DNA of 64,000 bases, taken from the NCBI GenBank assembly GCA_038207785.1, contig JBBQZK010000001.1, positions 9,405 through 73,404 of the forward strand, in the 5' to 3' direction. The notes under the pieces are model-generated. The model saw nothing but the letters and a program-made list of their open reading frames with translations, was not told the DNA's origin and searched no databases. Position 1 is the first letter of the stretch; the number at the start of each line of letters is the position of its first letter. The translations under genes and the position numbers were made by a program. The stretch is from Candidatus Limnocylindria bacterium (GTDB taxonomy: Bacteria; Chloroflexota; Limnocylindria; P2-11E). Positions 5,988 through 42,441 of the stretch are shown in pieces.

Positions 5988-6012
5988 CCCTACCTCCGCA
6001 CTGCGTGCGCAT

Positions 6013-6034
6013 TGACATGTTACGAGGAATGTCA
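6013..6034. promoter_or_regulatory. everted inverted repeat TGACAT-N10-ATGTCA overlapping a perfect TTGACA -35-like hexamer on the minus strand, upstream of the dehydrogenase operon
   Basis: Read directly from the sequence. The half-site is the same as in the ATGTCACGTGACAT palindrome found elsewhere in the window. The 12-mer TGACATGTTACG recurs at 21183. Confidence 0.5.
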
Positions 6035-6060
6035 AAGGGCACGCGCTCCGCTCGCCGAAG

Positions 6061-6840
6061 TCAGACGGAGCGGACGGACCTCCGTCGGGGCTGCGGCGCA
6101 CGGACCGGAAGAGGCTCCGCCGCTCCATGCGTCGCCCGGACGCCGAGCAGGCTGCCGATGATCCGGGTCTGGCCGTCGCGCACGTGGCGCGCGGTCGCCT
6201 CTCGGGCACCCTGGCGGTCCCGCCGAGCGAGCGCCGAGACGATGTCGCCGTGATCGTTGGTCGGCAGCGCCTCCAGCAGCACCGGATCGACGTACGCGGT
6301 GATGGTCGGGTCGATGAGCAGGATCCGCCTGCTCTCATCGAGGAGGCCCTCGATGAGGTGGACCAGTCGCTCGTTGGCCGACAGGCGTGCGAGCGCCAGA
6401 TGGAACTCGGAGTTGGCCTCGATCGCGAAGCGACGGTATGCCGCGGGATCGGTGCTGAACTTCTTGGCCTCGGACTGCACCCGGCGCTGCAGGCGCTCGA
6501 ACCCGTCGACGTCGCGGTCCGTGACGTGGTCGACCGCGAGCTCGGCGGCCAGGGCCTCGAGGGCCAGACGAAGCTGGAAGATCTCCTGGACGTCACCGAC
6601 GCTGAGCTCGGTGACGACGTAGCCGACGCGGGGAATGACACTGACGAGGCCCTCGGTGCAGAGCAGCTTGAGCGCCTCGTGCACCGGCGTCCGGCTCATC
6701 TTGTACTTCTGGGAGACCTTTGTGCCGAGCACCATCTCCCCCGGCTTCAGCTTCGTGCTGAGGATGTCCTCTTTGAGCTGGCGATAGGCCTTCTGCGCGA
6801 GCGAGCGGGTGTTCTTGACGGATGAGCGGATCATCGGCAC
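6061..6840 (-). CDS. GntR-family transcriptional regulator (FadR-like, FCD C-terminal domain)
   Basis: It has the N-terminal winged HTH (…SQKYKMSRTPVHEALKLLCTEGLV…) and a helical FCD-like C-terminus. It sits 28 nt downstream of dppC in the same operon. Confidence 0.8.
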   Translation of the reverse strand: MPMIRSSVKNTRSLAQKAYRQLKEDILSTKLKPGEMVLGTKVSQKYKMSRTPVHEALKLLCTEGLVSVIPRVGYVVTELSVGDVQEIFQLRLALEALAAELAVDHVTDRDVDGFERLQRRVQSEAKKFSTDPAAYRRFAIEANSEFHLALARLSANERLVHLIEGLLDESRRILLIDPTITAYVDPVLLEALPTNDHGDIVSALARRDRQGAREATARHVRDGQTRIIGSLLGVRATHGAAEPLPVRAPQPRRRSVRSV

Positions 6841-10525: not shown

Positions 10526-10539
10526 ATGTCACGTGACAT
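10526..10539. promoter_or_regulatory. operator palindrome ATGTCACGTGACAT upstream of the substrate-binding-protein-dppBC-GntR operon
   Basis: It is a perfect 14-bp palindrome lying about 45 nt upstream of the substrate-binding-protein ATG. It is part of the repeated promoter-operator cassette. Confidence 0.7.
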
Positions 10540-12080: not shown

Positions 12081-12094
12081 ATGTCACGTGACAT
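12081..12094. promoter_or_regulatory. operator palindrome ATGTCACGTGACAT upstream of the secreted hydrolase gene
   Basis: It is a perfect 14-bp palindrome 20 nt upstream of the ATG. A TTGACC-N17-CATCAT promoter lies at 12119-12147. Confidence 0.7.
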
Positions 12095-16253: not shown

Positions 16254-16267
16254 ATGTCACGTAACAT
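16254..16267. promoter_or_regulatory. operator ATGTCACGTAACAT in a divergent intergenic region; a TTGACC-N17-CATCAT cassette at 16280-16308 serves the minus-strand operon
   Basis: It lies 19 nt upstream of the minus-strand ATG at 16235 and 24 nt upstream of the plus-strand ATG at 16291. Confidence 0.7.
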
Positions 16268-21185: not shown

Positions 21186-21199
21186 ATGTTACGTTACAC
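21186..21199. promoter_or_regulatory. operator variant ATGTTACGTTACAC in a divergent intergenic region
   Basis: The TGTTACGTTACA core matches TGTnACGTnACA. It is flanked by TGACAT and GTGTCAC. Confidence 0.55.
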
Positions 21200-21204
21200 G
21201 TTAG

Positions 21205-21948
21205 GTGTCACTCCGCGAAGTGTTCATCGAGCGCATGACCTGGCCCGACATCGAGGCGGCGCTCGCCGCCGGCGCGCGTACCGCCGTCATCGCCGCCGGC
21301 GCGACCGAGCAGCATGGCCGGCACCTCCCGGAGGGGTCGGATGCCTTCATGGGCGAGGCCGTCGCCGAGCGGGTCGCGCGCGAGCTCGGCGACGCGTTGG
21401 TCGCGCCGGTCATCCGGCCGGGGTGCTCGGATCACCCTCTCGACTTCCCTGGAACGATCTCGATCCCGGCCGACACCCTCATCGACATCCTCGACGCATA
21501 CGTCACGTCGCTCCGTCGCAACGGCTTCGAGCGGTTCGTCGTGTTCTCGACGCACGGTGGGAACTTCCCGGTCCTCGAGCGGTGGCAAGGGTCCCGAAGT
21601 GCGCCGGGGCTCATCGTCATCCCCGATCGGCGCGGTCACGTCCGACCGGTCTACCAGTTCGCGGTGGCCTCCGGAACGGAGCAGCCCGGGGTGCTGCACC
21701 ACTCCGACGCCTTCGAGACGTCGCAGATCCTCGCCTTGCATCCCTCGCTCGTCCACCTGGACCGCGCGGAGCGCGGATATGTGGGTCCCCTGACCGCGGA
21801 CGAGCTGTTCGCCAGAGGCACCCGCATCGTCAGCCCGAACGGCGTGCTCGGGGATCCGGCGGGGGCGACGGCCGAGATCGGTGAGGTCATGTTGCGGTCG
21901 GTGACCGACTACATCGTGGGCAAGGTGCGGGCAGCGACACCGGCGTGA
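21205..21948 (+). CDS. creatininase-family amidohydrolase (creatinine amidohydrolase/MftE-like)
   Basis: It has ...AAGATEQHGRHLPEGSD... and ...FSTHGGN... motifs. It uses a GTG start. Confidence 0.75.
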   Translation: MSLREVFIERMTWPDIEAALAAGARTAVIAAGATEQHGRHLPEGSDAFMGEAVAERVARELGDALVAPVIRPGCSDHPLDFPGTISIPADTLIDILDAYVTSLRRNGFERFVVFSTHGGNFPVLERWQGSRSAPGLIVIPDRRGHVRPVYQFAVASGTEQPGVLHHSDAFETSQILALHPSLVHLDRAERGYVGPLTADELFARGTRIVSPNGVLGDPAGATAEIGEVMLRSVTDYIVGKVRAATPA

Positions 21949-24910: not shown

Positions 24911-24924
24911 ATGTCACGTGAAAT
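24911..24924. promoter_or_regulatory. operator ATGTCACGTGAAAT, with a TTGACC-N17-CATGCT promoter at 24872-24900, upstream of the DJ-1 pair
   Basis: It matches the cassette architecture, here on the plus strand. Confidence 0.6.
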
Positions 24925-24953: not shown

Positions 24954-25571
24954 GTGACTGACCGCCGGCGGGTCGGCATCGTGCTGTTCGAGGATGTCGA
25001 GGACATCGATTATGTCGGGCCCCTCACCGTCTTCGGGATGGCCTCGCAGCTGTTCCCGGACGAGCTGGAGACCGTGACGGTGAGCGCCACCGGAGCGGCG
25101 GTCCGGACGTCGATGGGCGTCTCGGTGCTGCCGCACGCGAGCTTCGCGTCCGCGGGACGGATCGACATCCTGGTCGTGGCCGGCGGGACCGGACATCGCG
25201 CAGCGATGCTCGATCGCGAGCTGACCGACTGGATCGCCGAGCGCGCGCGGGATGCCGAGATCGTCTCGTCGGTCTGCTCGGGAGCGTTCATCCTCGCGGC
25301 CGCCGGCGTGCTGCGCGATCAGCCCGCGACCGCCGCCTGGATGGCCCTCGACCGGCTGCGCGCGACGTTCCCGAGCCTGGACGTCCGCTCGGACGTGCGG
25401 TGGGTCGACGAAGGCGGCGTGGTCACGAGCGCCGGGGCGTCCGCGGGCATCGACATGAGCCTCCATCTCGTGGACCGGCTGCTCGGCCCGGCCGCGGCCG
25501 CGCGGGTCGTGAAACACATGTCGTATACCGGCTGGCCGGTGCGTGAAGGGGTGCCGGGTGCGATCGGATAG
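24954..25571 (+). CDS. DJ-1/PfpI-family protein (glutamine amidotransferase-like class 1)
   Basis: It has ...RRVGIVLFEDVEDIDYVGP... and the nucleophile elbow ...SVCSGAFILAAAGVL.... The GTG start is at 24954; the ORF-track TTG at 24900 would include the operator. Confidence 0.7.
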   Translation: MTDRRRVGIVLFEDVEDIDYVGPLTVFGMASQLFPDELETVTVSATGAAVRTSMGVSVLPHASFASAGRIDILVVAGGTGHRAAMLDRELTDWIAERARDAEIVSSVCSGAFILAAAGVLRDQPATAAWMALDRLRATFPSLDVRSDVRWVDEGGVVTSAGASAGIDMSLHLVDRLLGPAAAARVVKHMSYTGWPVREGVPGAIG

Positions 25572-26206: not shown

Positions 26207-28165
26207 CTAGCCCGGGCCGAACCCGTCGACCGGCGCGATCCGCCGTTGTCCCCGCGGACTCGTTTCCAGCACTTCGAGGATCGTGCCATCCGGTCCGAGG
26301 CGGTAGTCCTGCTCAGTGAGCTCGCTTACCCGATCGATCGCGACGCGCCAGGCCGTGCCTGCGGCCTCGCCAGCGGGCGGGCGGCTCGCCACAACGCTGA
26401 CACTGCGCGGCTCGCCACGCTCCAGCGTCAGCCCCTGCCGCGAAGCCTCGCCGGAGCTCGCCGCGACGGCCGCGGCGAGCGCGGTGACCGACACCCGTTC
26501 GGTGGCGATGACCTTCCCGGGCAAGGTGATCGTTGACTGGAATCCGTCGATGGCCTGGACCTCGACGATCGTGTCGCCACCCTCGGCGGACCGCACCTCG
26601 ATCGTGTCCTCGCCCAGCGGCGACACCATGCGCTGCGTGCCGCGGACGATGGTCCCGTCCGCCTTCAGATCGAGGCTGGTGGTCCGCACCATTCGCCCGC
26701 CCTGGCCCTGCTCGCTCGCGGTCCGCTCCTCGACGCGCAGCTCGCCCCGAGACGTACGGCTCCGGCGGAAGCTCGTCTCGGCGACCACCGCGCCGGCGAC
26801 CTCATCGCGCAGCCGCCCGGCCCGCAGGGCCGTAGCGTCGTCCGAGGGTGGATCGAGCTCCGTCTCGAACACGGGCGGCCGCTCAACAGCTCGCGCGCGG
26901 TCGGCCAGTCGCGCCTCGAGCGCATCGCGCGCGAAGTCGTAGCCGTTCACGAAGACGTGAGCGATCTCGCGGAGCGCGGCGACGTCGTCGACCGGATTGC
27001 CCGGGAGGAGCAGGAGATCCGCCCGCTTCCCCACCTCGACCGTCCCCCAGTCCGCCGTCTCGTTCACGAACCGCGCGGCTTCGACGGTCCCGCAACGCAG
27101 GGCCTCATAGCTCGAGAGGCCGGCCGCCCGCAGGTTTGCGAGCTCGCGGTGGATCGAGAAGCCCGGGATCACGTAGGGGTTCGGCGTGTCGGTGCCAAGG
27201 AGCAACGGGGCGCCTTCGCTATGCAGCACGCCGACGATGCGCCGGTAGACCTCGCTCAGCCGCGCGAGCGTGTCGTAGTAGTCGTCGTCGAAGGTCTGGC
27301 CGCGGAACCGGAAGTCCTGCGAGGGGTCCCAGGCCGCACGCGTGGCGGGGCTCATGTAGCGCAGGTACGGATCGAGCCTCGCCTGCGCCGGCCGTTGGGT
27401 GGTCTGCTGCCAGACGACACCGGTCGGGCAATTCCAGATCTGCTGCTCGTGCATCAGCACGGCGAGCCGCCGGATCGAATCCCAGTCGAGGTGCTCGATC
27501 GCGAGCTTCGCCAGGGCCAGGCGGTTGGCGCGGTCGCTCGGATCGGGCATCGTTACGCCCGCCTCCAAGTGATCGCGGCGAATGCCCGTGAGGTGCTCAA
27601 AGCAGGTGTGGCCGTTCGCGATCGCCTGCTCGTAGCTGATCGAGTCCGGGCAATGCCCGGTGATCATGACCCCGTGGGTCTTGGCCGCGACGCAGAGCGC
27701 GGCGTGGGACTCCGGGCTCAGCCACGAATACACTTTGATCTGCGGGTACCCGCGCTCCGCCCAGGCGCGCACGAGCGGCTCGGCCTGTTCGGGACGGGCG
27801 ACCATCGCCGAGGTGGACCAGATCGTGCGCCCGCTTTTGCCAGGGCCGTCGACGATCGGACTCGTCGTGATCAAATGGGGACCGGGGAGCAGGCCGTTAC
27901 GGATCTGTCGCTGGAGGGCCAGGTGCATCGGCGCGCCCCACATGTTGCGAACGGTCGTGACGCCGTTGGCGAGGTAGAGCCGGTACTCGTCCAGGTCCCA
28001 CCAGTGCACGTGCATGTCGGCGAGGCCGGGCATCAGGTACCGTCCGCGGCCCTCCACCACACGGGCGCCGGGTGGCACGACGCAGGTCGCCGCCGGACCG
28101 ATCGATCGGATCCGGCCGGCTTCGATGACGACGGTCTGATCGGGGATCACTGCGTCGCGGTCCAT
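26207..28165 (-). CDS. amidohydrolase-superfamily protein with a C-terminal extension of roughly 180 aa
   Basis: It has ...LMPGLADMHVHWWD... and ...GTDTPNP... and ...GKRADLLLLPGNP.... The ATG at 28165 follows the cupin gene stop; the ORF-track start at 28624 overlaps the cupin gene. Confidence 0.6.
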   Translation of the reverse strand: MDRDAVIPDQTVVIEAGRIRSIGPAATCVVPPGARVVEGRGRYLMPGLADMHVHWWDLDEYRLYLANGVTTVRNMWGAPMHLALQRQIRNGLLPGPHLITTSPIVDGPGKSGRTIWSTSAMVARPEQAEPLVRAWAERGYPQIKVYSWLSPESHAALCVAAKTHGVMITGHCPDSISYEQAIANGHTCFEHLTGIRRDHLEAGVTMPDPSDRANRLALAKLAIEHLDWDSIRRLAVLMHEQQIWNCPTGVVWQQTTQRPAQARLDPYLRYMSPATRAAWDPSQDFRFRGQTFDDDYYDTLARLSEVYRRIVGVLHSEGAPLLLGTDTPNPYVIPGFSIHRELANLRAAGLSSYEALRCGTVEAARFVNETADWGTVEVGKRADLLLLPGNPVDDVAALREIAHVFVNGYDFARDALEARLADRARAVERPPVFETELDPPSDDATALRAGRLRDEVAGAVVAETSFRRSRTSRGELRVEERTASEQGQGGRMVRTTSLDLKADGTIVRGTQRMVSPLGEDTIEVRSAEGGDTIVEVQAIDGFQSTITLPGKVIATERVSVTALAAAVAASSGEASRQGLTLERGEPRSVSVVASRPPAGEAAGTAWRVAIDRVSELTEQDYRLGPDGTILEVLETSPRGQRRIAPVDGFGPG

Positions 28166-28257
28166 CGGCACGAGCGTGACCGATGTGATCGCGACCGGAC
28201 CCTCGGGCCGCGCGGGAATGTCCAGGCCCTCGCGGAGGGCCGGCAGTCGAGCGGAGC

Positions 28258-28881
28258 TCACGCTCGGTCCGACCGCCAGGTCTCGCCGGCGTCCCGGATC
28301 GTCGCCGGTCCGCCGGCACGGACCCGGAGGTGGCCGAAGCGCTGGTTGATGCTCGAGCCGAGCGCCTCGATGTCGGCGCCGTACACGTGGATCGAGATGG
28401 CCGGACCTGCCCCGGCGTTGCTGACGCGGTGGATGTTCTCCTCGGGCGGGACGAGTGCCGAGCAGTCGCCGCGAGCCGCCCGCTCGTGTCCCGCCTCGAC
28501 GAGGTAGCGGTCCTCGCCGGACCGCATGAGGCGGTAGCGGATCTGGGACTCCTCCCCCTCGTACACGCCCACGACGCACCAGCAGATGTGGTCGTGGATG
28601 GGCGTGGCCTGGCCGGGATGCCACACGAGGGCGACGACGCTGAACGAGCGATCCGGGGAGACCGCGAGCACGTGTTGGGTGTAGCGGTCAGGGGTGCCGG
28701 CTCGCGCACCCTCGGGCAGCCACGAGCGATCCGCGAGGAGCGGCGGCAAGCGCCGCATCGCGAGATCGGCCATCTCCCGGGGACCTCTGCCGTCGGCCTG
28801 CGCCGCCGACAGCTGGGCCACGAACGATCGCAGCGCGGGCGCGAGCGTCGGCGCTGACGGACCGGACCTCACCGCTTGCAT
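28258..28881 (-). CDS. cupin-fold protein (cysteine dioxygenase type I-like)
   Basis: It has ...ALVWHPGQATPIHDHICWCVVGVYEGEE.... The ATG at 28881 lies inside the operator. The ORF-track GTG is at 28893. Confidence 0.55.
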   Translation of the reverse strand: MQAVRSGPSAPTLAPALRSFVAQLSAAQADGRGPREMADLAMRRLPPLLADRSWLPEGARAGTPDRYTQHVLAVSPDRSFSVVALVWHPGQATPIHDHICWCVVGVYEGEESQIRYRLMRSGEDRYLVEAGHERAARGDCSALVPPEENIHRVSNAGAGPAISIHVYGADIEALGSSINQRFGHLRVRAGGPATIRDAGETWRSDRA

Positions 28882-28893
28882 GTTACGTGACAC
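28880..28893. promoter_or_regulatory. operator variant ATGTTACGTGACAC spanning the stop of the amidohydrolase gene and the start of the cupin gene
   Basis: The amidohydrolase TAA is at 28885..28883 and the cupin ATG at 28881..28879. Confidence 0.5.
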
Positions 28894-30145
28894 GGCTGGT
28901 GCCGCCGCGCGGCCGCTCCTCGAGGGGAGCGGCTGAACGGATGCGGACCCCGGACTGCATCACGAACCGCACGCGCCCGCGGTCGCTGAAGAGCGCCGGC
29001 TCGGACAACGGGTCCCCGGCGACGCCGATGAGGTCCGCCTGCTTACCCGGTTCGAGCGTGCCGACCGTGTCCAGCCCGAGGCAGGCGGCCGCCGTCTTCG
29101 TGGCCGCCATGATGGCCTGCAACGGAGTCATGCCGGCTTCGACCATGAAGCTGATCTCCTCGGCGTTCGCGCCATGCGGGCCGATGCCGGTGTCCGTCCC
29201 CATCGCGATCCGCACGCCCATCCGGAGGGCCAGCTGGAATGCCTCACGATGCCGCCCGATCAGGGCGTCCGCCTTCTTGATCACGTAGCTCGGCATGGCC
29301 GCCGGATCCGCGTCGGCCCGCCGGCGGGTCCACGGCAGCGCCGAAAGCGTCGGCACGAGGAACGTTCCGCGCTCGACCATCATCAGGCAGGCTTCCTCGT
29401 CGAGGAAGGTCCCGTGCTCGATGGACTCGATCCCGGCAAGCACGGCGTTCTTGATCCCCTGCGCCGAGTGAGCGTGAGCCATCACGGTCTTCCCCGCGGC
29501 GTGCGCCTCGTAGACGACGACGGCGATCTCCTCCGGCGAGAATCCCGTGGCGGTCGGCTCGTCGCTCGGCGACATGACCCCACCCGAGGTCAGCACCTTG
29601 ATCTGATCGGCGCCCGCGCGGAGCAGCTCGCGGGTGCCACGCCGAACGGCGTCCACGCCGTCGACCACGGCCATCGGGCGCTCCGCGTCCACGGGAAGGC
29701 GCATGACCACGCCCATCGGCATGAGCTGATCGCCGTGCCCACCGGTCTGAGACAGCGCGCCGACCGAGAGGCGCATCCGCGGCCCCGGGAACAGGCCACG
29801 GTCCACCGCGAGCCTGACTCCACGGGGCGTCCCGCCGCCATCGCGCACGGTCGTGATGCCCGCCTCCAGCGTCGCGCGCGCGTTGAACAGAGCCTGGGCG
29901 GTCACGAGGCTCGACGGCGTGAGCAGCTTCTCCTGCGCGTTGAAGGTCGTGATCCCCAGGTGCACGTGGCTGTCGATGAGTCCGGGGAGGATCGTCAGCT
30001 CGGACGCGTCGATCACCTCCGCGTCTCGCGGGCGCTCGCTGCCGACGCGCTCGATGCGGCCGTCGGCGATGGTGATCCAGGCTGGGCGCACCGGATCGGC
30101 GCCGGTGCCGTCGATGACCCCGCCCGCGTGGATCGCCGTCCTCAC
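28883..30145 (-). CDS. amidohydrolase-superfamily protein
   Basis: It has ...ILPGLIDSHVHLG... and ...GTDTGIGPHG... and ...GKQADLIGV.... Confidence 0.75.
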   Translation of the reverse strand: MRTAIHAGGVIDGTGADPVRPAWITIADGRIERVGSERPRDAEVIDASELTILPGLIDSHVHLGITTFNAQEKLLTPSSLVTAQALFNARATLEAGITTVRDGGGTPRGVRLAVDRGLFPGPRMRLSVGALSQTGGHGDQLMPMGVVMRLPVDAERPMAVVDGVDAVRRGTRELLRAGADQIKVLTSGGVMSPSDEPTATGFSPEEIAVVVYEAHAAGKTVMAHAHSAQGIKNAVLAGIESIEHGTFLDEEACLMMVERGTFLVPTLSALPWTRRRADADPAAMPSYVIKKADALIGRHREAFQLALRMGVRIAMGTDTGIGPHGANAEEISFMVEAGMTPLQAIMAATKTAAACLGLDTVGTLEPGKQADLIGVAGDPLSEPALFSDRGRVRFVMQSGVRIRSAAPLEERPRGGTSRVT

Positions 30146-30149
30146 GGCC

Positions 30150-30863
30150 TCAGATCCCCCACTTGGCGCGATCGGCGGCCTCGGAGTCGGTCCAGTGCGC
30201 GACGCGCGCGGTCATCCCCATCGCGTCGATGTAGCTCTCGCCGCCGACCATCCGCGCGTGCCGCTCCTCTTCCAGCGCGGCATGCGCCTCGGTCAGCTCG
30301 ATGACCCGCTCGGCGTCCGCGCGCGGCACGACGACGACGCCGTCGTCGTCGCCCAGGATCAGGTCGCCCGGCTGCACAGGAATGCCGCCGCACTGGATCG
30401 GGATGTTGATCGCCCCCGGCCCGGCGCCAGGCCAGAGCGGCATCGCCACCGACCGGGCGAAGACCGGCCAGCCCTTCGCGCGCAGGATCGTCGCGTCGCG
30501 CACCCCGCCGTCCACCACGATCCCGGCCGCACCGGCCCGCTCCAGGTACCAGGCGATGCGGTCGCCCATGCAGCAGAACTCCTTGATGCCGGCCGCATCC
30601 ACGACGATGACCTCGCCCGGACGGACCACGTCCGACGACTTCAGGACGAAGAGCGCATCGGCGGCCCGGGTCCACACCGTCACCGCAGGCCCGCAGACCT
30701 TCATCCCCGGTGCGATCGGCTTGATCTCGTGATGCACGGCCCCGTGACGACCCATCGCGTCATACGCATGCACCGGCGGGTGCGCCCTGAACCGCTCGAT
30801 GAGCCCTGCGGGCAGCGGCTCGGGCGCCGCGAGGATCTTCCCGTACTGGCTGTGCCGCTCCAT
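30150..30863 (-). CDS. RraA-family protein (RraA/HMG-CHA aldolase/oxaloacetate decarboxylase-like)
   Basis: It has ...GIVVDGGVRD... and ...GWPVFARS.... The ATG at 30863 has a GGAGG RBS. The ORF-track extension is junk. Confidence 0.7.
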   Translation of the reverse strand: MERHSQYGKILAAPEPLPAGLIERFRAHPPVHAYDAMGRHGAVHHEIKPIAPGMKVCGPAVTVWTRAADALFVLKSSDVVRPGEVIVVDAAGIKEFCCMGDRIAWYLERAGAAGIVVDGGVRDATILRAKGWPVFARSVAMPLWPGAGPGAINIPIQCGGIPVQPGDLILGDDDGVVVVPRADAERVIELTEAHAALEEERHARMVGGESYIDAMGMTARVAHWTDSEAADRAKWGI

Positions 30864-30918
30864 GATGTCGCCTCCGTCGCCGAACTCTGGCCCACCCGGT
30901 CCGCGTGGTCGCTTGGGA

Positions 30919-31944
30919 TCACGACCAGTCCAGCACGACCTTTCCGCACTCACCCGAGCGCACGACGGCGAAGGCCTCCGCGAACTGCGCCGCGCGGAAC
31001 CGGTGCGTGATGACCGCACCGATGTCGAGGCCGCTCTGGAGCATCGAGCCCATCCGATACCAGGTCTCGAACATCTCCCGGCCGTAAATGCCCTTGATCG
31101 TGAGGCCGCGGAAGATGACTTGGTTCCAGTCGATCGCCACCTCTTCGTTGGGGATCCCGAGGAGCGCGATGCGACCGCCGTGGTTCATCGTGGCGAGCAT
31201 CGAACGGAGCGCGGCCGGGCTTCCGGACATCTCGAGTCCGATGTCGAACCCCTCCAGCATCCCGAGCTCTGCCATGACGCCGCTGAAGGTGGTCGCCGCC
31301 GGGTCCACCGCGAGCGTCGCGCCGAGCGTTCGCGCAAGGTCGAGCCGGTACGGATTGCGGTCGCTGACCACGACGTAGCGGGCGCCCACGAACTGGCTCA
31401 CCGCCGCGGCCATCACCCCGATCGGTCCGGCGCCGGTGATGAGCACGTCCTCGCCGGCGAGCTCGAAGGACAGCGCGCTGTGGATCGCGTTGCCGAGCGG
31501 ATCGAGGCATGAGCCGATCTCGTCCGGCATGCCGGCGGGCAGCACATACGCGTTCGTCGCAGGCACCGTCACCTCGTCGGCGAACGCTCCGGGGCGCTGG
31601 ACCCCGATCCCCTCGGTGTTTCGGCACAGGTGGCGGCGGCCGGCCCGGCAGTTCCGGCAATGGCCGCAGGTCACGTGGCCCTCGACAGCGACCCGCTGTC
31701 CGATCTCGAATCCGCGCACGAGATCGCCGATCTCGACGATCGACCCCATGAATTCGTGGCCGACGACCAGCCCGATCGGCACGTTGGCGCGGGACCAGGC
31801 ATCCCAGTTCCAGATGTGCAGATCGGTGCCGCAGATCGAGGTGTAATGGACGCGGATCCGTAGATCGTTGGGGCCGGTCAGGGGAGCCGGCACATCGTCG
31901 AGCCAGAGTCCGGCCTCGGGCCTGCTCTTCACGAGCGCGCGCAT
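30919..31944 (-). CDS. tdh: L-threonine 3-dehydrogenase
   Basis: It is near-collinear with E. coli Tdh (…[14 protein letters not shown]… …[19 protein letters not shown]… …GKVVLDWS). It is ATGA-coupled to kbl. Confidence 0.9.
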
Positions 31945-33134
31945 CAGCTGGCGCCGAGCTCCCGTCCGGCGGTCGCGAACGCCTCGAGCGCGCGGTCGAC
32001 GTGCGCGGACTCGTGGGCGGCCGAGAGCTGTACGCGGATCCGCGCCTCCCCGCGCGGCACGACCGGGAACGAGAATGCGATGACGTAGATCCCGAGCTCG
32101 AGGAGCCGGTCGGCCATCCTCGTCGCGAGGCCCGCGTCGCCAAGCATGACCGGCACGATCGGATGCTCGCCGGGAATGATCCGGAAGCCGCGCTGCGCCA
32201 TCCCCTCGCGGAACCGGACCGTGTTCGCCCAGAGCCGCTCTCGCTCCAGGCTGGATCGCTCGATGAGATCCAGCACCGCGATCGACGTCGCGGCGATCAC
32301 GGGTGCGAGGCTGTTCGAGAACAGGTAGGGCCGGGACCGCTGCCGCATGAGCTCGACGATCTCTTTGCGCCCGGAGATATAGCCGCCGGAGGCGCCACCC
32401 AGCGCCTTGCCGAGCGTGCCCGTGATGACGTCCACCCGGCCGACCACACCACCGGCCTCGTGGGATCCGCGGCCGCTCGCGCCCATGACGCCGACCCCGT
32501 GCGAGTCGTCGACCATGACGAGCGCGTTCGAGCGGTCCGCGAGATCGCAGATGCCGCGGAGATCCGCCACGACGCCGTCCATCGAGAACACCCCGTCGGT
32601 CGCGATGACCGTGAAGCGGGCTCCCGAAGCCGCGGCGAGCTGACGCTCGAGATCGTCCAGATCGTTGTTCGCGTACCGGTAGCGCGTCGCTTTGGACAGA
32701 CGCACGCCGTCGATGATGCTGGCATGGTTGAGGGCATCGCTGATGATCGCGTCACCCTCGCCCACGAGCGTCTCGAAGAGGCCCCCATTCGCGTCGAAGC
32801 ACGAGCCATAGAGGATGGTGTCCTCGGTGCCGAGGAAGCGCGTCAGGCGATCCTCGAGCTCGGTGTGGATCTCCTGCGTGCCGCAGATGAACCGGACCGA
32901 CGAGAGCCCATAGCCCCACCGATCGAGGGCCCGGTGGGCCGCGGCCACGACGTCCGGGTGATTGGAGAGCCCGAGGTAGTTGTTCGCGCAGAAATTGAGG
33001 ACCTCGCCGCCCGGGCGAGCGACGATGACGGCCCCCTGGGCCGAGGCGAGGACCCGTTCGCGCTTGAACAGCCCGGCATCACGGATGCCGTCGAGCTGCC
33101 CGCGGAGGTGGTCGGACAGCGCGGTCGTCCGCAT
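31944..33134 (-). CDS. kbl: 2-amino-3-ketobutyrate CoA ligase (glycine C-acetyltransferase)
   Basis: It is near-collinear with E. coli Kbl (…[15 protein letters not shown]… …SVRFICGTQ… …[12 protein letters not shown]…). The MRTT start at 33134 matches the E. coli N-terminus. An alternative ATG at 33146 lies inside the operator. Confidence 0.9.
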
Positions 33135-33158
33135 GCTACGTAACATGTTACGTCAGTG
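33133..33158. promoter_or_regulatory. two overlapping operator variants, ATGCTACGTAACAT at 33133-33146 and ATGTTACGTCAGTG at 33145-33158, between kbl and the asparaginase gene
   Basis: They overlap the kbl start codon(s) and end just before the asparaginase GTG at 33156. Confidence 0.55.
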
Positions 33159-34196
33159 CCACGCGGCGCAGCCGACCGCAGTGATCACGCGCTGAGCGAG
33201 CTGCTGCTCGAGGTCACCCGGGGCGCGCTGGTCGAGGAGCGACACCGGGGCGCGCTGGCCGTCGTCACGCCGGACGGTCAGCTGGCGCACGCGGCCGGGG
33301 ATCCGGACGCGACCGTGGCGTACCTGCGATCCGCGGCGAAGCCGTTCCAGGCCATCGCGCTCGTGCGGAGCGGCGCCGCTGACCGGTTCGATCTGAACGC
33401 CGCGGATCTCGCCCTGTGCTGCGCGTCGCACAACGGCGAGGAACGGCACATCGCCGGCGTGGCCGCGCTGCTCGAAAAGATCGGCTGCAGCGAACGGGAT
33501 CTCGCCTGCGGCACATACCCACCCCTCCTCGCGGCTGCCGCCGCCGCTCTGGACCGGCGCGGCGAGCGCCCCACCGCCCTGCACAACAACTGCAGCGGCA
33601 AGCACGCCGGCATGCTCGCGCTCGCGCTCCACCTTGGTGCTCCGATCAGGGGCTACCTGCAGTCAGACCATCCCGTGCAGCGGGAGATCCTGGCTGACGT
33701 CTCGCGTTTCACCGGCGTGCCGGTCGAGCGCATCGCCCAGGCTATCGACGGCTGCGGCGCACCCACCTTCGGCACCCCGGTCACCGGGATGGCCCTGGCC
33801 TTCGCGCGTCTCGCGAACCCGGATGTGCTGCGCGGAGCTGATCGCTCGGCTGCGCTGCGGCTCCGGGACGCGATGATCGCAGAGCCCTATCTGGTGGGCG
33901 GTGCGGAAAGCTTCGACACTGCGGCGATGACCAACGGCGTCGGCCGACTGGTGTCGAAGCGGGGCGCGAGCGGAGTGCAATGCGTCGGCGTCGTGGGCCG
34001 GCTGGGCATCGCGGTCAAGATGGAGGCCGGATCGGCGGCGCCCGGCCCGGCTGCCGCCGTGATGTGCGCGGCGCTTCAGCAGCTGCGGGTGCTCGATCAG
34101 CCCGGCGAGCTTGCGCTCGACGCTTTCGCCCGCCCGCCGATCCGTAGCGTCGTCGGAGACATCGTGGGGCAGACTCGCGCTGTGTTCGTCCTCTAG
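33156..34196 (+). CDS. L-asparaginase II family protein (PF06089-type)
   Basis: It has the hallmark ...HNNCSGKHAGMLAL... and an N-terminal ...LLLEVTRGALVEERHRGALAV.... It uses a GTG start. Confidence 0.8.
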   Translation: MPRGAADRSDHALSELLLEVTRGALVEERHRGALAVVTPDGQLAHAAGDPDATVAYLRSAAKPFQAIALVRSGAADRFDLNAADLALCCASHNGEERHIAGVAALLEKIGCSERDLACGTYPPLLAAAAAALDRRGERPTALHNNCSGKHAGMLALALHLGAPIRGYLQSDHPVQREILADVSRFTGVPVERIAQAIDGCGAPTFGTPVTGMALAFARLANPDVLRGADRSAALRLRDAMIAEPYLVGGAESFDTAAMTNGVGRLVSKRGASGVQCVGVVGRLGIAVKMEAGSAAPGPAAAVMCAALQQLRVLDQPGELALDAFARPPIRSVVGDIVGQTRAVFVL

Positions 34197-34245: not shown

Positions 34246-34886
34246 TCAGGAAGCGGATGGACGGGAACGAGGGGACGATCCGGACGCGCGTCCTGTACCA
34301 GCGACGCGCGGCAGCCAGGCCGCGCGCTGCGACTCGTATGCCGCGATCGCCGGGGCGTGCGCGAGCGTCAGATCGATCTCGTCCCGGCCGGCGAGGAGTC
34401 GCGCGCGCGAGCTGTCGTCGATCGCGAACGGCGCGTGGTAGCCGAGCGCCGGCACCGCCACGCTCCGCCGGTCCACGTCGACCGTCAGCTCGATCAGGGG
34501 ATCCGCGGCGACCGCCGCGAGGATGCGCGCGACGTCCGCCGCCGGCAGCTCCGCGAGCACGAGCCCGACGGCGAGACAGTTGGAGCGGAAGATGTCGGCG
34601 AAGCTCGGCGCGACGACGGCCCGGAAGCCGCGATCATCGAGCGCCCATGCGGCGTGCTCCCGCGAGCTGCCGCAGCCGAAGTTCGCGCCGGCGACGAGCA
34701 CGGTCGCGCCGGCGAAGCGCGGATCGTTCAGAACGAACCCAGGGTCCGCGCACCACGCCGCGAAAAGTCCCGCCCCGTAGCCGGTGCGCTCGATGCGCTT
34801 GAGCCAGTCGCTCGGGATGATCTGGTCGGTGTCCACGTCGCGGCGGTCGAGCGGGAGCGCCCGCCCGGTGACCGCCCGCACGGCCC

Positions 34887-34890
<4 letters not shown>
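34246..34890 (-). CDS. leuD: 3-isopropylmalate dehydratase small subunit
   Basis: It has ...[19 protein letters not shown]... and is ATGA-coupled to leuC. Confidence 0.85.
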
Positions 34891-39314
<4,424 letters not shown>

Positions 39315-39327
39315 CTCTTCCTCCTGT

Positions 39328-39573
39328 TTATTCGGCCGGGTGGATGCGTGCGTCGCGTACGTCGATGAGCGATGCGAACTGACTGAGCGCGAGCGCCGCT
39401 TCCTTCGGCACCGCGCCCGCCTCGATGCGGACGGACCAGCGCCCCGCGTCGGCGCGGTCGGCGCGGAACGACCGCAGGCCGAGCCTGCGGCGCCGCACGA
39501 CGGACAGGACGCGCTCGATCGCGCCGGGTACCGCGTCGACCGTGAGCTCGAAGGTGTGTTGATCGTCGCTCAC
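39328..39573 (-). CDS. ilvN: acetolactate synthase small (regulatory) subunit, short single-ACT form (81 aa)
   Basis: It is ACT-like (…[31 protein letters not shown]… …[13 protein letters not shown]…). The GTG overlaps the ilvB stop (GTGA) and has a GAGGAG RBS. Confidence 0.6.
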
Positions 39574-41285
39574 GAGAACGGCTCCTCGATGAGATCCGCG
39601 TTCGCGCCGCCCGGCGGCACGATCGGCCAGACATTCGCCTCGCGCTCGACGCGGATGTCGAGCACGACCGGACCCGGATGCGCTTTCGCGGTGGCGAGCG
39701 CGGGCGCGAGGTCGGCGCGCCGCTCGACGCAGAAGCCGAGGACGCCGTACGCATCCGCGAGCTTCACGTAGTCCGGGCTGCTGATGGGCGTCTGCGAGAT
39801 CCGGCCGTCGTGGAACAGCTGCTGCCACTGCCGGACCATGCCGAGGTAGCCGTTGTTCAGGATCGCGAGCTTCACCGGCGTGCCCTCCTGCACCGCGGTG
39901 CCAAGCTCCTGGATCGTCATCTGCGCGCCGCCGTCCCCGGCGATCGCCCAGACTTCCGACGCGGGCCGGCCGAGCTGCGCGCCGATCGCCGCGGGGAGCG
40001 CGTAGCCCATCGCGCCGAGGCCACCCGAGGTGAGGAACCGGTCCGGCTGGGTGAGCCGGAGGTGCTGCGCGGCCCACATCTGGTGCTGGCCGACGTCCGC
40101 GACGAAGTACGCGTCTTCGCTCGCCGCCTCGCGGATCGCGCGGATCACCAGCCGCGGCGGGAGCTCGACACGTCGCTCGTACTCGCTGACCCGCGGCCGC
40201 GGCCGGTCGTGCTCGAGGCGGGCCCGCCACTCGGGGCGCGTGACCTTCGGGAGGCGCGCGGCGATGGCGAACAGCACGGCACCGGCGTCGCCGAGGATGC
40301 CGAGTGCCGTCGGCACGTTCTTGCCGAGCTGCGTCGCGTCGATGTCCGCGTGGATGATGGCGGCCCGCGGCGCGAACGCGCTGATCTTGCCGGTGACGCG
40401 ATCATCGAACCGCAGACCCACGCCGAGGATGACGTCGGCGTCGTTGACCATCCGGTTCGCGGCTGCGCTCCCGTGCATGCCGAGCATGCCCGCGGCGAGC
40501 GGATGTTCTTCGGAGATCGCGCCGATGCCGAGGAGGGTCGTGACGATCGGCGCGTCGATGCGCTCGGCAAGGGCCCGCAGCTCACCGTGCGCGCCGGCCA
40601 GGCGGACGCCCTGACCGGCGATGATCACCGGCCGCGCCGCGCCCTGGAGGAGCGCCGCCGCGCGGTCGAGCGCGACCGGATCCGCTCCGGCCGGGGGTGG
40701 CGGCGCGAACGCGCTCTCAGCACGTGCGCGCGCCGCCGTCGCGCGCAGCTGGATGTCCTTCGGGATGTCGACGACGACCGGACCCGGCCGGCCGGCACGC
40801 GCGACCGCGAACGCCTGGTGGATCGTGGGCTCGATGTCCTCGACCCGCTCGACGAGGAACGCGTGCTTCGTGACGGCGCCGACCAGCCCGAGGACGTCGG
40901 TCTCCTGGAACGCGTCGCGTCCCATGAGCGGCGTCGACACCTGGCCGGTGATCGCCACGACCGGGACGCTGTCCATGTACGCGCAGGCGAGCCCGGTCAC
41001 AAGGTTCGTGGCTCCGGGGCCGGAGGTCGCGACGCAGACGCCGGCGCGTCCGGTGGCCCGCGCGTAGCCATCGGCCATGTGCGCTGCACCCTGCTCGTGC
41101 CGCACGAGCACGTGATGGACGCGCGGATGGTCGGGGAGTGCGTCGTACAGCGGAAGGCAGGCGCCCCCGGGATAGCCGAAGACGACGTCGGCGCCGGCGT
41201 GCTCGAGGGCACGCCACACGAGGTCGGCACCGCGCAGCGTGACCGCGTCGGCTGCCGGGATCGCCGGCCGGATCTGCGTCGCCAT
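39570..41285 (-). CDS. ilvB: acetolactate synthase large subunit
   Basis: It has the TPP/FAD ALS fold (…GYPGGACLPLYDAL… …GDGGAQMTIQELGT…) and a GAAGGAGG RBS. Confidence 0.9.
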   Translation of the reverse strand: MATQIRPAIPAADAVTLRGADLVWRALEHAGADVVFGYPGGACLPLYDALPDHPRVHHVLVRHEQGAAHMADGYARATGRAGVCVATSGPGATNLVTGLACAYMDSVPVVAITGQVSTPLMGRDAFQETDVLGLVGAVTKHAFLVERVEDIEPTIHQAFAVARAGRPGPVVVDIPKDIQLRATAARARAESAFAPPPPAGADPVALDRAAALLQGAARPVIIAGQGVRLAGAHGELRALAERIDAPIVTTLLGIGAISEEHPLAAGMLGMHGSAAANRMVNDADVILGVGLRFDDRVTGKISAFAPRAAIIHADIDATQLGKNVPTALGILGDAGAVLFAIAARLPKVTRPEWRARLEHDRPRPRVSEYERRVELPPRLVIRAIREAASEDAYFVADVGQHQMWAAQHLRLTQPDRFLTSGGLGAMGYALPAAIGAQLGRPASEVWAIAGDGGAQMTIQELGTAVQEGTPVKLAILNNGYLGMVRQWQQLFHDGRISQTPISSPDYVKLADAYGVLGFCVERRADLAPALATAKAHPGPVVLDIRVEREANVWPIVPPGGANADLIEEPFS

Positions 41286-41304
41286 GAGCGGGCCTCCTTC
41301 TCGC

Positions 41305-41341
41305 GTACATAAGAGGAAGGCCTCCCATTGCTGGGAGGCCT
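41305..41341 (-). terminator. ilvB leader attenuator: a 10-bp GC hairpin (AGGCCUCCCA-GCAA-UGGGAGGCCU) followed by UUCCUCUUAUGU
   Basis: It lies about 30 nt downstream of the leader-peptide stop and about 20 nt upstream of the ilvB RBS. An alternative pairing, CUGGGAGGC (overlapping the leader stop) with GCCUCCCAG, would form an anti-terminator. Confidence 0.55.
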
Positions 41342-41372
41342 CCGTGGTGGGTTCTGCGTGTCGCCTGTGCCG

Positions 41373-41447
41373 CTAGCCTCCCAGCCGTCTCCCATCGCCC
41401 TCAATAAGGACGATGCCGATAACGACGACGAGGCCGAGCTGGCGCAT
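41373..41447 (-). CDS. ilv operon leader peptide MRQLGLVVVIGIVLIEGDGRRLGG
   Basis: It is a 24-codon ORF with 10 of 13 consecutive codons Val/Ile/Leu. It sits immediately upstream of the attenuator hairpin. Confidence 0.55.
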   Translation of the reverse strand: MRQLGLVVVIGIVLIEGDGRRLGG

Positions 41448-41524
41448 CAGGAAGATGGACGATGCGGCACGCGCACCGGCACGGTCAACGCTCGCGGCCG
41501 AAGTCGGTGCACCATGCACAGTGC

Positions 41525-42217
41525 TCACGACGCGAGCTCCTCGAGCGCGGTCTGGCCGAGCACGGCGAGGTACAGCGTCACGCGCTGGCCGGCATCCTCG
41601 AGGTCGGCTCCGGTGAGCTCGCCGATCCGCCTGAGGCGCTGGCGCACGGTGTTGCGGTGCAGGAACAGCGCGCGGGCAACGCCGTTCACGCTGCCATGCG
41701 ACCGCAGGAACTCCTCGAGCGTCCGGAGCTCCTCGCGCTGGGCCTGCTCGGCGAGCGGGCCGAGGACCGCGCGGCAGAAGGTGCGGATCTCCTCTGTCGG
41801 CCGGCCGAGGACGAAGCAGTACGGGCCGAGTTCGGCGAACGCGGTGACGCGCCCGTGGCCGTTGAGCGCGCGCCCCACGCGCACCGCCTGTTCGGCCTGC
41901 AACACGACGAGCTGGAGGGAACGCTCGCGATCGCGCGGACCGGCGATGCCGACCGAGAGCGTCGGATCGCCGAGCGCGTCGGCGACCGCGGCGCGAAGGC
42001 TGGCCGCCGCACCGGCAGGCTCGGCGCCGGGCGGCACGCGCTGGAGCGCGATGACCGTCGGTCCGCGTGCGCCGACGATCCGCGCGTCCGGTGGAAGCGC
42101 CCGGCGGACCGCACCGTGGAGCGACCGCAGGGTGCCCTCGGCCGCGCCCTGGAACGCGAACGCGTAGAGCGGCGATGGCGTCGTCGCCGGGGTCGTCCGC
42201 TCGGATCGCGCGTCCAC
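41525..42217 (-). CDS. PucR/CdaR-family-like transcriptional regulator (C-terminal PucR-type HTH)
   Basis: It has ...LRTLEEFLRSHGSVNGVARALFLHRNTVRQRLRRIGELTG.... It uses a GTG start with an AAGGAG RBS. Confidence 0.6.
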   Translation of the reverse strand: MDARSERTTPATTPSPLYAFAFQGAAEGTLRSLHGAVRRALPPDARIVGARGPTVIALQRVPPGAEPAGAAASLRAAVADALGDPTLSVGIAGPRDRERSLQLVVLQAEQAVRVGRALNGHGRVTAFAELGPYCFVLGRPTEEIRTFCRAVLGPLAEQAQREELRTLEEFLRSHGSVNGVARALFLHRNTVRQRLRRIGELTGADLEDAGQRVTLYLAVLGQTALEELAS

Positions 42218-42242
42218 CGCTCGCTCCTTTCATTTCGCACCG

Positions 42243-42273
42243 GAAACAGAAAAGACCTCCCGGTCTGGGAGGT
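42243..42273. terminator. GC hairpin (GACCTCCC-GGTCT-GGGAGGTC) with an A-run on one side and a T-rich tail on the other; candidate bidirectional intrinsic terminator
   Basis: On the minus strand the hairpin is followed by UUUUCUGUUUCC. It separates the ACT gene from the PucR-like gene. Confidence 0.5.
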
Positions 42274-42441
42274 CCTTGTTGGTGCCGGTCTCGATGTGTG
42301 TGCTACGCGGTCGTGGTGTTCCTCCCAGCGTCGTTCAAGCCCCACATGATGTGGAGCTCGATAACGATGGCGCGGAGGACGCTGGACCGCATCGCGACAA
42401 CGGTACATCCTGCCGGGGGTCCGGCCAAGCCCCAGGCAGTC

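Follow-up and report, generated by a model that had tools for sequence, protein, structure and literature searches.

The threonine-to-glycine genes kbl and tdh, joined by genes for an RraA-like protein and an amidohydrolase, appear to make up a catabolic unit that is headed by an operator and lies on the edge of a peptide/amide-hydrolase regulon in the window, by which we mean the whole stretch of 64,000 nucleotides analysed here. The host is a Candidatus Limnocylindria (Chloroflexota) bacterium; its G+C content of 70% would also have suited an actinobacterium, a placement that the homologue search rejected. The operator is predicted to be a repressor site, and the divergent messages of kbl and of an asparaginase II family gene are predicted to be leaderless or nearly so. 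We lean modestly towards this composite reading; the features on which it is built are collected in Table 1.

Table 1. Genes, start codons and predicted operator elements of the regulon (window coordinates)
Feature	Coordinates	Strand	Remarks
GntR/FCD (FadR-subfamily) regulator	6061-6840	minus	last gene of operator-headed ABC-transporter operon
Operator, perfect match	10526-10539		45 nt upstream of SBP_bac_5 ATG 10480
Operator, perfect match	12081-12094		19 nt upstream of ATG 12061, SD GGGGAGG
Operator, perfect match	16254-16267		between divergent amidohydrolase genes (starts 16235 minus, about 16291 plus)
Operator, 1 mismatch	21186-21199		between divergent unknown gene (start 21161/21164, minus) and creatininase-family gene (plus)
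Operator, 1 mismatch	24911-24924		upstream of two tandem DJ-1/PfpI genes
Amidohydrolase B	26207-28261	minus	684 aa, Pfam Amidohydro_1; GTG start overlaps cupin stop (GTGA)
CDO_I-type cupin gene	28258-28872	minus	Pfam PF05995, 32 bits
Internal operator ATGTTACGTGACAC, 1 mismatch	28880-28893		on amidohydrolase A stop codon, 7 nt upstream of cupin GTG 28872
Amidohydrolase A	28883-30145	minus	last gene of kbl-headed unit
RraA-like aldolase/decarboxylase family gene	30150-30863	minus	237 aa, 55 nt after tdh, GGAGG SD
tdh, L-threonine 3-dehydrogenase	30919-31944	minus	341 aa
kbl, glycine C-acetyltransferase (2-amino-3-ketobutyrate CoA ligase)	31944-33134	minus	396 aa, most likely start ATG 33134
Operator ATGCTACGTAACAT, 1 mismatch to consensus	33133-33146		overlaps both candidate kbl ATGs (33134, 33146)
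Perfect 16-bp palindrome ACGTAACATGTTACGT	33138-33153		formed by the two overlapping operator elements
Alternative in-frame kbl ATG	33144-33146	minus	4 codons upstream; outer triplet of operator
Degenerate operator-like element ATGTTACGTCAGTG, 3 mismatches	33145-33158		outer half overlaps asparaginase GTG
Asparaginase II family gene	33156-34196	plus	346 aa, GTG start, divergent from kbl, 9 nt from operator

Both kbl and tdh are genuine, as the sequence-only reading had held: they pass equivalog cut-offs, are collinear with solved KBL and TDH and carry the key motifs. Kbl scores 627 bits against NCBIfam NF005394 (glycine C-acetyltransferase, cut-off 460) and 621 bits against TIGR01822 (cut-off 493), and these scores exceed those with the related models for BioF, serine palmitoyltransferase and ALA synthase; with BioF it reaches 371 bits, under the cut-off of 426. 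Its residues 9-395 are collinear with residues 11-399 of solved KBL 1FC4, and the PLP-lysine motif TLGKA occupies residues 240-244. Tdh scores 532 bits against NCBIfam NF003808 (L-threonine 3-dehydrogenase, cut-off 380) and 466 bits against TIGR00692 (cut-off 458), and the whole protein (residues 1-341) is collinear with residues 9-349 of solved TDH 5KIA. Its motifs (GHE at 62, CxxCxxCx7C at 93-107 and GAGPIG at 171) comprise zinc-ligand motifs of the zinc MDR type and a Rossmann motif. Read directly, the junction of the two genes is a 1-nt overlap of the kbl stop and the tdh start (TGATG). Exact look-ups of the window Tdh and of the public product P0001, which is identical to Kbl, returned no record for either. 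The hydrolase island said to surround the pair is likewise real, judging from the profile matches of the neighbouring genes.

On the minus strand the row runs kbl, tdh, RraA-like gene, amidohydrolase A, CDO-type cupin gene and amidohydrolase B, in that order. The first two genes overlap by 1 nt, gaps of 55 nt and then 4 nt follow, amidohydrolase A and the cupin gene are separated by anything from an 11-nt overlap to a 10-nt gap according to which cupin start is used, and the last two genes overlap by 4 nt; on this strand the scan gave no terminator-like site between the row genes. A seven-gene operon had been proposed; the row has six genes in two operator-headed units, the internal operator lying between the fourth and fifth genes, and this control element speaks against a single polycistronic operon from kbl to position 26207. 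The RraA-like gene matches Pfam PF03737 (133 bits) and equals in length the gene called in a related locus (L081), and amidohydrolase A matches Pfam Amidohydro_1 (186 bits) and resembles Xaa-Pro dipeptidase below the cut-off (NCBIfam NF051886, 319 bits vs 500). The cupin gene likely starts at GTG 28872, where TAACAT-N7-GTG has the -10 spacing typical of leaderless genes; the arrangement TA(A/G)CAT-N7-GTG is kept in another related locus (L096), and two in-frame alternatives, ATG 28881 and GTG 28893, lie inside the operator. The cupin gene and amidohydrolase B are thus headed by a separate operator, and their unit likely has a leaderless start.

The operators share the consensus ATGTnACGTnACAT, a 14-bp palindromic motif of which the window has seven copies with at most one mismatch, where 0.01 would be expected; all seven fall in the interval from 10.5 to 33.2 kb. 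At every site the outer hexamers of the motif, T[A/G]ACAT, resemble -10 boxes. At kbl the last two bases of the operator are the first two of ATG 33134. A metagenome scan for AACATGTTACGTNNCATGCG gave six matches, which we attribute to chance because all lie in low-GC contigs that have no kbl. In the searchable literature we found nothing on the motif ATGTnACGTnACAT or its core, and a literature search for a GntR operator at kbl/tdh gave nothing relevant.

The spacer between kbl and the asparaginase II gene is 21 bp long (33135-33155) and is filled by the palindromic site. Two operator variants had been described here, of which the first covers both kbl ATGs as claimed; the second is weak, with three mismatches and one good half-site, the inner, kbl-proximal ATGTTAC, which is perfect. 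At three-mismatch stringency the window holds 13 matches against 7.7 expected, and this element is not significant alone; its good half-site also reads as the -10-like hexamer TAACAT. The asparaginase GTG, placed by the earlier reading right at the operator edge, lies 9 nt beyond the strong element, and it touches the operator only through the outer half of the weak one. Inside the palindrome, -10-like hexamers face outwards on both strands and overlap one another: TAACAT at 33141-33146 (plus) and 33145-33150 (minus), and CATGTT at 33144-33149 (plus) and 33142-33147 (minus). The interval between TAACAT and the start codon is 10 nt at kbl and 9 nt at the asparaginase gene, where 6-7 nt is canonical, whereas CATGTT has the right spacing (7 and 6 nt, respectively) and lacks the first T.

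That the kbl ATGs have no recognisable ribosome-binding site was borne out: the 20 nt ahead of each of the starts 33134, 33146 and 33156 contain no GGAG, GAGG, AGGA or GGGG. Strong SDs precede the genes at 10480, 12061, 16235, 21161, 30863, 39314, 41285 and 42217 elsewhere in the window, and several long ORFs show the signature TANNNT-N6/7-start at their first start codon (58613, 47631, 45271, 6840 and 28872). A sigma-70 consensus scan gave no promoter-like site, no -35-like hexamer was found, and a terminator scan gave one terminator-like match, which lies within the asparaginase ORF on the minus strand and is no more than chance. A riboswitch or structured leader was rejected, the Rfam scan of the junction region having given no family and RNA folding no significant structure (z-score -1.4).

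The start of kbl is most likely ATG 33134, which fits the length of two public products of 396 aa, P0001 (100% identical) and P0002 (94%). In 69 of 120 homologues 19-20 residues separate Met1 from the GL[FY]K motif, in line with ATG 33134; in 38 of them the interval is 23-24 residues, which leaves room for ATG 33146. The upstream ATG is probably not the start; it is preceded by neither an SD nor a -10-like hexamer. For asparaginase II (Pfam PF06089, 357 bits, profile positions 2-321 of 322; no NCBIfam match), GTG 33156 is the sole canonical in-frame start: a TAA occupies 33141-33143, and initiation at the following start codon, 33315, would cut into the Pfam domain. The public product P0147, of 346 aa and 100% identical over the whole query, fits GTG 33156.

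The sequence-only reading had concluded that the spacer leaves essentially no room for conventional promoters. The spacer is indeed short, but the argument is weaker than stated, both because the palindrome itself carries the outward-facing -10-like hexamers and because a relative with 94% identity (L081) keeps the operator-to-ATG register (ATGTTACGTGGCAT then G) despite having 175 bp of non-coding DNA upstream of its kbl operator, with no asparaginase and no divergent gene. The compact layout is thus a property of the kbl module and not of crowding. In L081 the TAACAT hexamer and the inner half-site of the second element are conserved and the outer half is not, no asparaginase remnant was found in the spacer, and amidohydrolase A is a separate operator-headed unit.

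The block of 93% identity between L081 and the window begins exactly at the palindrome, upstream of which the DNA is unrelated. The flanks are 79% identical. Homology breaks off within the palindrome, and each of two clean cassette indels is bounded on one side by an operator copy. That the island block is so much more similar than the flanking ilv/leu genes suggests that operator-headed cassettes may move between related genomes. A 94% relative from another sample (L098), which holds the kbl 5' end and the junction only, has an identical junction, a 29-bp match that is not significant at 6% divergence; the same asparaginase junction is found there and in L099. The operator-headed kbl module is thereby represented by three independent sequences only, namely the window (L099 being the same sequence), L098 and L081. 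Remoter Limnocylindria kbl-tdh pairs (78% identity) have another context and no operator, and the same is true of the closest asparaginase II relatives with long contigs (61% identity). A genome-collection scan with Kbl gave at least 80 loci of at most 69% identity, mostly from Streptomyces and Proteobacteria; the motif is in none of those listed, and no Limnocylindria locus is among the listed matches, so that they offered no comparison between orthologues.

The likely binder of the operator, and our candidate repressor, is the GntR/FCD protein encoded at 6061-6840, which has an N-terminal GntR winged helix (PF00392, 53 bits) and a C-terminal FCD domain (PF07729, 75 bits). All retrieved loci with its orthologues of 62-85% identity (L094/L095, L096 and L097; three independent) have the motif, although these loci were picked via the regulator itself, and the remaining loci (L001-L080, L082-L087 and L100-L101), which add up to about 1.06 Mb, do not contain it. 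The assignment is one of co-occurrence alone, and L081 has two sites with no regulator seen within 15 kb, so that another factor encoded outside the window might be the true regulator. We consider this unlikely: the motif accompanies the orthologue in three of three independent loci and in none of the controls, the GntR/FCD protein is the only DNA-binding protein in the island among the ORFs scanned (part of all ORFs), and its gene is co-transcribed with an operator-headed operon, through which the regulator is probably autoregulated.

With the candidate repressor in place, it is plausible that one repressor governs divergent transcripts that are leaderless or nearly so, and initiation of this kind with occlusion by the operator is the best reading that we can infer from the sequence. 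Because the operator lies on the kbl start and nearly at the asparaginase start, the leader of each message is probably very short or absent. A dimer of the island GntR/FCD regulator would bind the junction palindrome, and one bound repressor would block both divergent core promoters at once, because the sole -10-like hexamers also lie in the palindrome, where they face outwards and overlap. The kbl and asparaginase mRNAs would start 0-4 nt before the start codons. The repressor would be released by an effector that is probably formed from the imported peptide/amide substrate; Tdh and Kbl would then turn the released threonine into glycine and acetyl-CoA, and carbon from asparagine/aspartate would fall to asparaginase II and the RraA-like enzyme. 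A connection in physiology between threonine and the island substrate is speculative.

Leadered transcripts are a minority possibility that deserves to be taken seriously. Here the promoters would lie in each other's coding regions, the palindrome would act as a roadblock in both 5' UTRs, and translation would proceed free of SDs via an unstructured region. The absence of both a -35 and a canonical -10 at the right spacing is consistent with this, as are the AT-rich operator patch (at 33131-33157, 11 of 27 bases are G or C, whereas the genome has 70% GC) and the other regulon operators, which lie 18-45 nt upstream of SD-led starts and can therefore lie in or near a leader. However, any promoter shared with L081 must lie at or after the palindrome, from which point the module is 93% identical and upstream of which the DNA is unrelated; moreover, leadered genes in this genome otherwise use strong SDs, and no stable leader structure is predicted.

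Strict dyad symmetry and a place over the start codon and the presumed transcription start site are typical of repression, and activator sites normally lie upstream of the -35. It is accordingly very unlikely that a factor bound at the palindrome switches the island on, whether as an activator or through a promoter element of a specialised kind, even though its outer hexamers are -10-like at all sites and some FadR-family regulators double as activators. The site at 28880, between co-directional genes and on the upstream stop codon, also fits an internal operator or roadblock better. A bolder version of the repressor reading, which we rather doubt, would make the spacer a bidirectional, truly leaderless promoter pair with overlapping -10s in one palindrome, terminal ATG/CAT as starts and one GntR-type dimer that switches both UTR-less messages in a Chloroflexota lineage, and would make the operator palindromes junctions for swapping cassettes (kbl-tdh-RraA, asparaginase II and amidohydrolases) among Limnocylindria. 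Its second part is supported by the 93% versus 79% identity, the edge in the palindrome and the indel ends at operators.

If the preferred reading of an operator-headed, repressor-controlled unit holds, a housekeeping threonine-to-glycine pair can join a substrate-specific regulon via one short operator on its start codon. We know of no experimental work on promoters, operators or translation initiation in uncultured Limnocylindria, and this compact case, which comprises three start codons, a 29-bp junction and a single candidate regulator, could tell whether leaderless mRNAs occur in Chloroflexota and what form the -10 elements take there.

The E. coli kbl-tdh operon, which is under Lrp/leucine control from an ordinary promoter with a leader, has the same order of kbl then tdh, coupled frames and collinear proteins; unlike it, the window pair is extended by the RraA-like and amidohydrolase genes, lies in a hydrolase island and has a 14-bp palindrome on its start codon. 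GntR repressors of the FadR subfamily (FCD), such as FadR, PdhR, LldR and B. subtilis GntR, use palindromic operators over core promoters. The window regulator resembles them in joining a GntR winged helix to FCD, in its predicted dyad operator with GT..AC elements and in its local, multi-operon catabolic regulon, and it differs in that the ends of the operator can coincide with start codons, the regulator-operator pairing being predicted. In tetR/tetA, a divergent pair shares one operator region; the window junction is similar in having one short control region, two outward genes and operators predicted over both promoters, but its spacer is only 21 bp, the regulator is not among the divergent pair, SDs are absent and leaders are predicted to be absent. 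Leaderless genes in high-GC bacteria have TANNNT about 12 bp upstream of the start and are predicted in some Chloroflexi, although they are few there, about 5% (Zheng et al. 2011, PMC3160421). Like them, kbl and the asparaginase gene lack an SD and have a -10-like hexamer close upstream, and other window genes show the canonical TANNNT-N6/7-start; unlike them, TANNNT begins 16 nt (kbl) and 15 nt (asparaginase) upstream, which would give a leader of 3-4 nt unless CATGTT is the -10. Set beside these systems, the window leaves current concepts unchanged and adds a new lineage and a new motif to those they cover.

The kbl and tdh assignments, which the sequence-only reading had called unambiguous, are borne out in this window of 70% GC. 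The product of minus-strand 31944-33146 scored 627 bits against the NCBIfam glycine C-acetyltransferase equivalog (cut-off 460), is collinear with the solved structure KBL 1FC4 and carries the PLP-lysine motif TLGKA; that of minus-strand 30919-31944 scored 532 bits against the L-threonine 3-dehydrogenase equivalog (cut-off 380), is collinear with TDH 5KIA and carries the GHE and CxxCxxCx7C zinc motifs and a Rossmann motif. The two genes overlap by one base, between the stop of kbl and the start of tdh (TGATG). Plus-strand 33156-34196 encodes a full-length Asparaginase_II family protein (357 bits), and all three products are typical representatives of their families. In public data, the closest Kbl matches are one 100% identical (396 aa) and one 94% identical, named Candidatus Limnocylindria; the following matches lie at 75-78% identity, and those with a source name belong to Limnocylindria, a class within Chloroflexota, or to Chloroflexota. 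An actinobacterial host is thereby rejected.

From the AT-rich patches of the window, we derived a 14-bp dyad with the consensus ATGTnACGTnACAT, a predicted repressor site termed the operator, which occurs seven times when up to one mismatch is allowed (0.01 expected from shuffles); all seven copies sit at or between gene ends inside the hydrolase island, and the motif had no match in the searchable literature. On the sense strand of kbl, the 33133-33146 copy (ATGCTACGTAACAT) is ATGTTACGTAGCAT with a G directly after it; therefore its first triplet is the ATG at 33146, its last two bases plus this G form the ATG at 33134, and both candidate kbl starts are spanned. The earlier claim that two overlapping operator variants cover these ATGs thus stands for this copy, but all three mismatches of the second variant (33145-33158, ATGTTACGTCAGTG) fall in its outer half, and it is not significant alone, since 13 matches occur in the window at that stringency against 7.7 expected. 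Jointly, the two make a perfect 16-bp palindrome at 33138-33153. Partial dyads were also seen in further AT-rich patches (1836-1855, 6010-6037 and 25507-25529): TTGGAACATCACGTGATCAA at a gene end, a weak operator-like site that separates the GntR stop from the ADH start, and a patch where the two DJ-1 genes meet.

The GTG at 33156, given earlier as the asparaginase II start, is the sole canonical one, because the frame has a TAA at 33141-33143 and the next ATG, GTG or TTG comes only at 33315; a public 346-aa product, 100% identical across the whole query, corresponds to it. From the ATG at 33134, Kbl has the 396-aa length of both the 100% and the 94% identical public proteins, the NCBIfam profile starts within one residue of this Met, and the Met-to-GL[FY]K distance is the commonest value in 120 homologues (the longer form is found in 38). 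The spacer between this ATG and the GTG is 21 bp, of which the palindrome occupies 16. No GGAG, GAGG, AGGA or GGGG is present in the 20 nt upstream of 33134, 33146 or 33156, in agreement with the earlier statement that neither kbl ATG has a recognisable ribosome binding site; strong Shine-Dalgarno (SD) sequences precede first genes elsewhere in the window (e.g. 10480, 12061, 16235, 21161, 39314, 41285 and 42217). The closest asparaginase II homologues begin MSELLLEVTRG, where the window has CTG at the Met position, and the GTG start adds 12 residues relative to them (33156-33194); this extension is hypervariable between the window and L098 (193-228), a locus with the same asparaginase junction, with a one-codon indel and about one-third of bases differing, versus 6% elsewhere.

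The sole -10-like hexamers in the palindrome are TAACAT (33141-33146 on the plus strand, 33150-33145 on the minus strand), which ends 9 nt from the GTG and 10 nt from the ATG at 33134, and CATGTT, which ends 6 and 7 nt from them, respectively. As a putative -10 element, TAACAT predicts leaders of 3-4 nt and CATGTT none; the former stands farther from the starts than the canonical 6-7 nt, and the latter has this spacing but lacks the first T. At this junction, we found no -35-like hexamer, no Rfam family and no significant RNA structure. Among 12 Chloroflexi genomes, 4 were predicted by Zheng et al. (PMC3160421) to have leaderless genes, at about 5% of genes, with a TANNNT that begins some 12 bp before the start codon. 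The canonical signature (TANNNT, 6-7 nt, first start of a long high-GC3 ORF) occurs in the window at 58613, 47631, 45271, 6840 and 28872; among the ORFs that carry it without an SD are those for an OmpR-type response regulator and for the GntR regulator, and the cupin signature (28872) is kept in L096, a GntR/FCD orthologue locus, as TAGCAT-N7-GTG. This pattern suggests the use of leaderless mRNAs by this Limnocylindria genome. For the creatininase-family gene (21200-21235), the start could be GTG 21205, GTG 21220 or ATG 21235, none of which has a clear SD; GTG 21205 lies 5 nt from an operator, and the gene may be another short-leader case in the regulon.

The minus-strand row headed by kbl-tdh, read earlier as a seven-gene operon, consists of six genes in two operator-headed units. 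No terminator-like site was found on the minus strand between the genes from kbl to amidohydrolase B, so read-through between the units could occur. In L081 (GCA_046262615.1), the relative with the 94% identical Kbl, an opposite-strand amidohydrolase with its own operator and SD separates amidohydrolase A from RraA, which shows the units to be modular. This extra gene and operator copy (L081 12985-14350, versus window 30146-30149) form a clean insertion between the RraA-like gene and amidohydrolase A, and the amidohydrolase has no homologue in the window (E<1e-10).

Genes of the minus-strand row and copies of the operator motif
Feature	Position	Strand	Remark
kbl	start 33134	minus	first gene in row
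tdh	30919-31944	minus	1-nt overlap with kbl
RraA-like	start 30863	minus	55-nt gap after tdh; GGAGG SD
amidohydrolase A	30145-28883	minus	4-nt gap after RraA-like
operator	28880-28893		covers TAA stop of amidohydrolase A
CDO-type cupin		minus	next gene after operator 28880-28893
amidohydrolase B	start 28261	minus	GTGA overlap with cupin stop
operator copies (<=1 mismatch)	10526, 12081, 16254, 21186, 24911, 28880, 33133		start positions in window
motif in L097	206		
motif in L096	3497, 6279		two-mismatch copy at 337
motif in L094/L095	3479		

Among the ORFs scanned in the island, a single DNA-binding protein was found, a GntR + FCD protein (6061-6840) encoded by the last gene of an operator-headed ABC-transporter operon; the PucR-type and OmpR-type genes are located outside. 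Its orthologues were located at 85%, 67% and 62% identity, and every one of their loci (L094-L097) has the motif, including the syntenic island without kbl in L096; no copy with at most one mismatch occurs in about 1.06 Mb of other loci examined. These co-occurrences support, but do not prove, binding of the operator by this protein. With its seven operators (10526-33146) and this regulator, the island resembles a single regulon, covering the peptide-type ABC importer, five amidohydrolases, M20, two PTE-family, creatininase-like and two DJ-1/PfpI genes, the cupin, the RraA-like gene, asparaginase II and kbl-tdh.

In L081, the order is leuC-leuD, a 175-bp spacer and kbl-tdh-RraA-like, with no asparaginase. 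Ahead of kbl stands ...ccaATGTAACATGTTACGTGGCATGcgg, a one-mismatch operator copy placed in exactly the register of the window, and the TAACAT hexamer is retained; the operator-on-ATG layout thus goes with the kbl module even where upstream space is free. By blastn, the kbl-tdh-RraA block (window 30150-33151 versus L081 9984-12984) is 93% identical and the ilv-leu flank (window 34304-42276) 79%, and third-codon-position identity is 83-87% in the block versus 66% in ilvC. The similarity block begins at 33151, within the palindrome, and the island segment appears to be a more recent exchange than its flanks. The 29-bp kbl/asparaginase junction is identical in L098 (a short contig from another sample, with a 94% identical asparaginase), which is not significant alone at 6% divergence; L099, the other locus with this junction, has the same sequence as the window. 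Because the motif is absent near Limnocylindria kbl-tdh pairs at 78% identity, where the context is unrelated, and from all 80 other kbl loci listed, the attachment of kbl-tdh to the operator is recent and lineage-specific.

We propose that a GntR/FCD dimer would sit on 33133-33146, perhaps aided by the extra half-site, and would cover overlapping outward -10 elements together with both start sites, so that kbl-tdh-RraA-amidohydrolase A and asparaginase II would be repressed together until an effector relieves repression; the messages would begin 0 to about 4 nt before their start codons. The main rival holds that the mRNAs are leadered and SD-independent, with promoters inside the neighbouring ORFs and the operator acting as a roadblock; this is weakened by the L081 comparison, because similarity begins only at the palindrome. 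A truly bidirectional leaderless promoter combined with operator-bounded cassette shuffling is a tentative reading that we consider rather unlikely. The island encodes a peptide-type ABC importer, M20 and amidohydrolase-type peptidases, and DJ-1/PfpI, creatininase-like and PTE-family hydrolases, and would release amino acids or amides; threonine would be disposed of by Tdh and Kbl, asparagine would be deamidated by asparaginase II, and for the RraA-like protein a role as 2-oxo-acid aldolase or oxaloacetate decarboxylase is possible.

The putative control logic of the kbl/asparaginase II junction resembles that of FadR-type GntR repressors, with their core-promoter operators, and that of shared-operator divergent pairs, and its predicted mode of initiation would be similar to that of the leaderless genes of high-GC bacteria.
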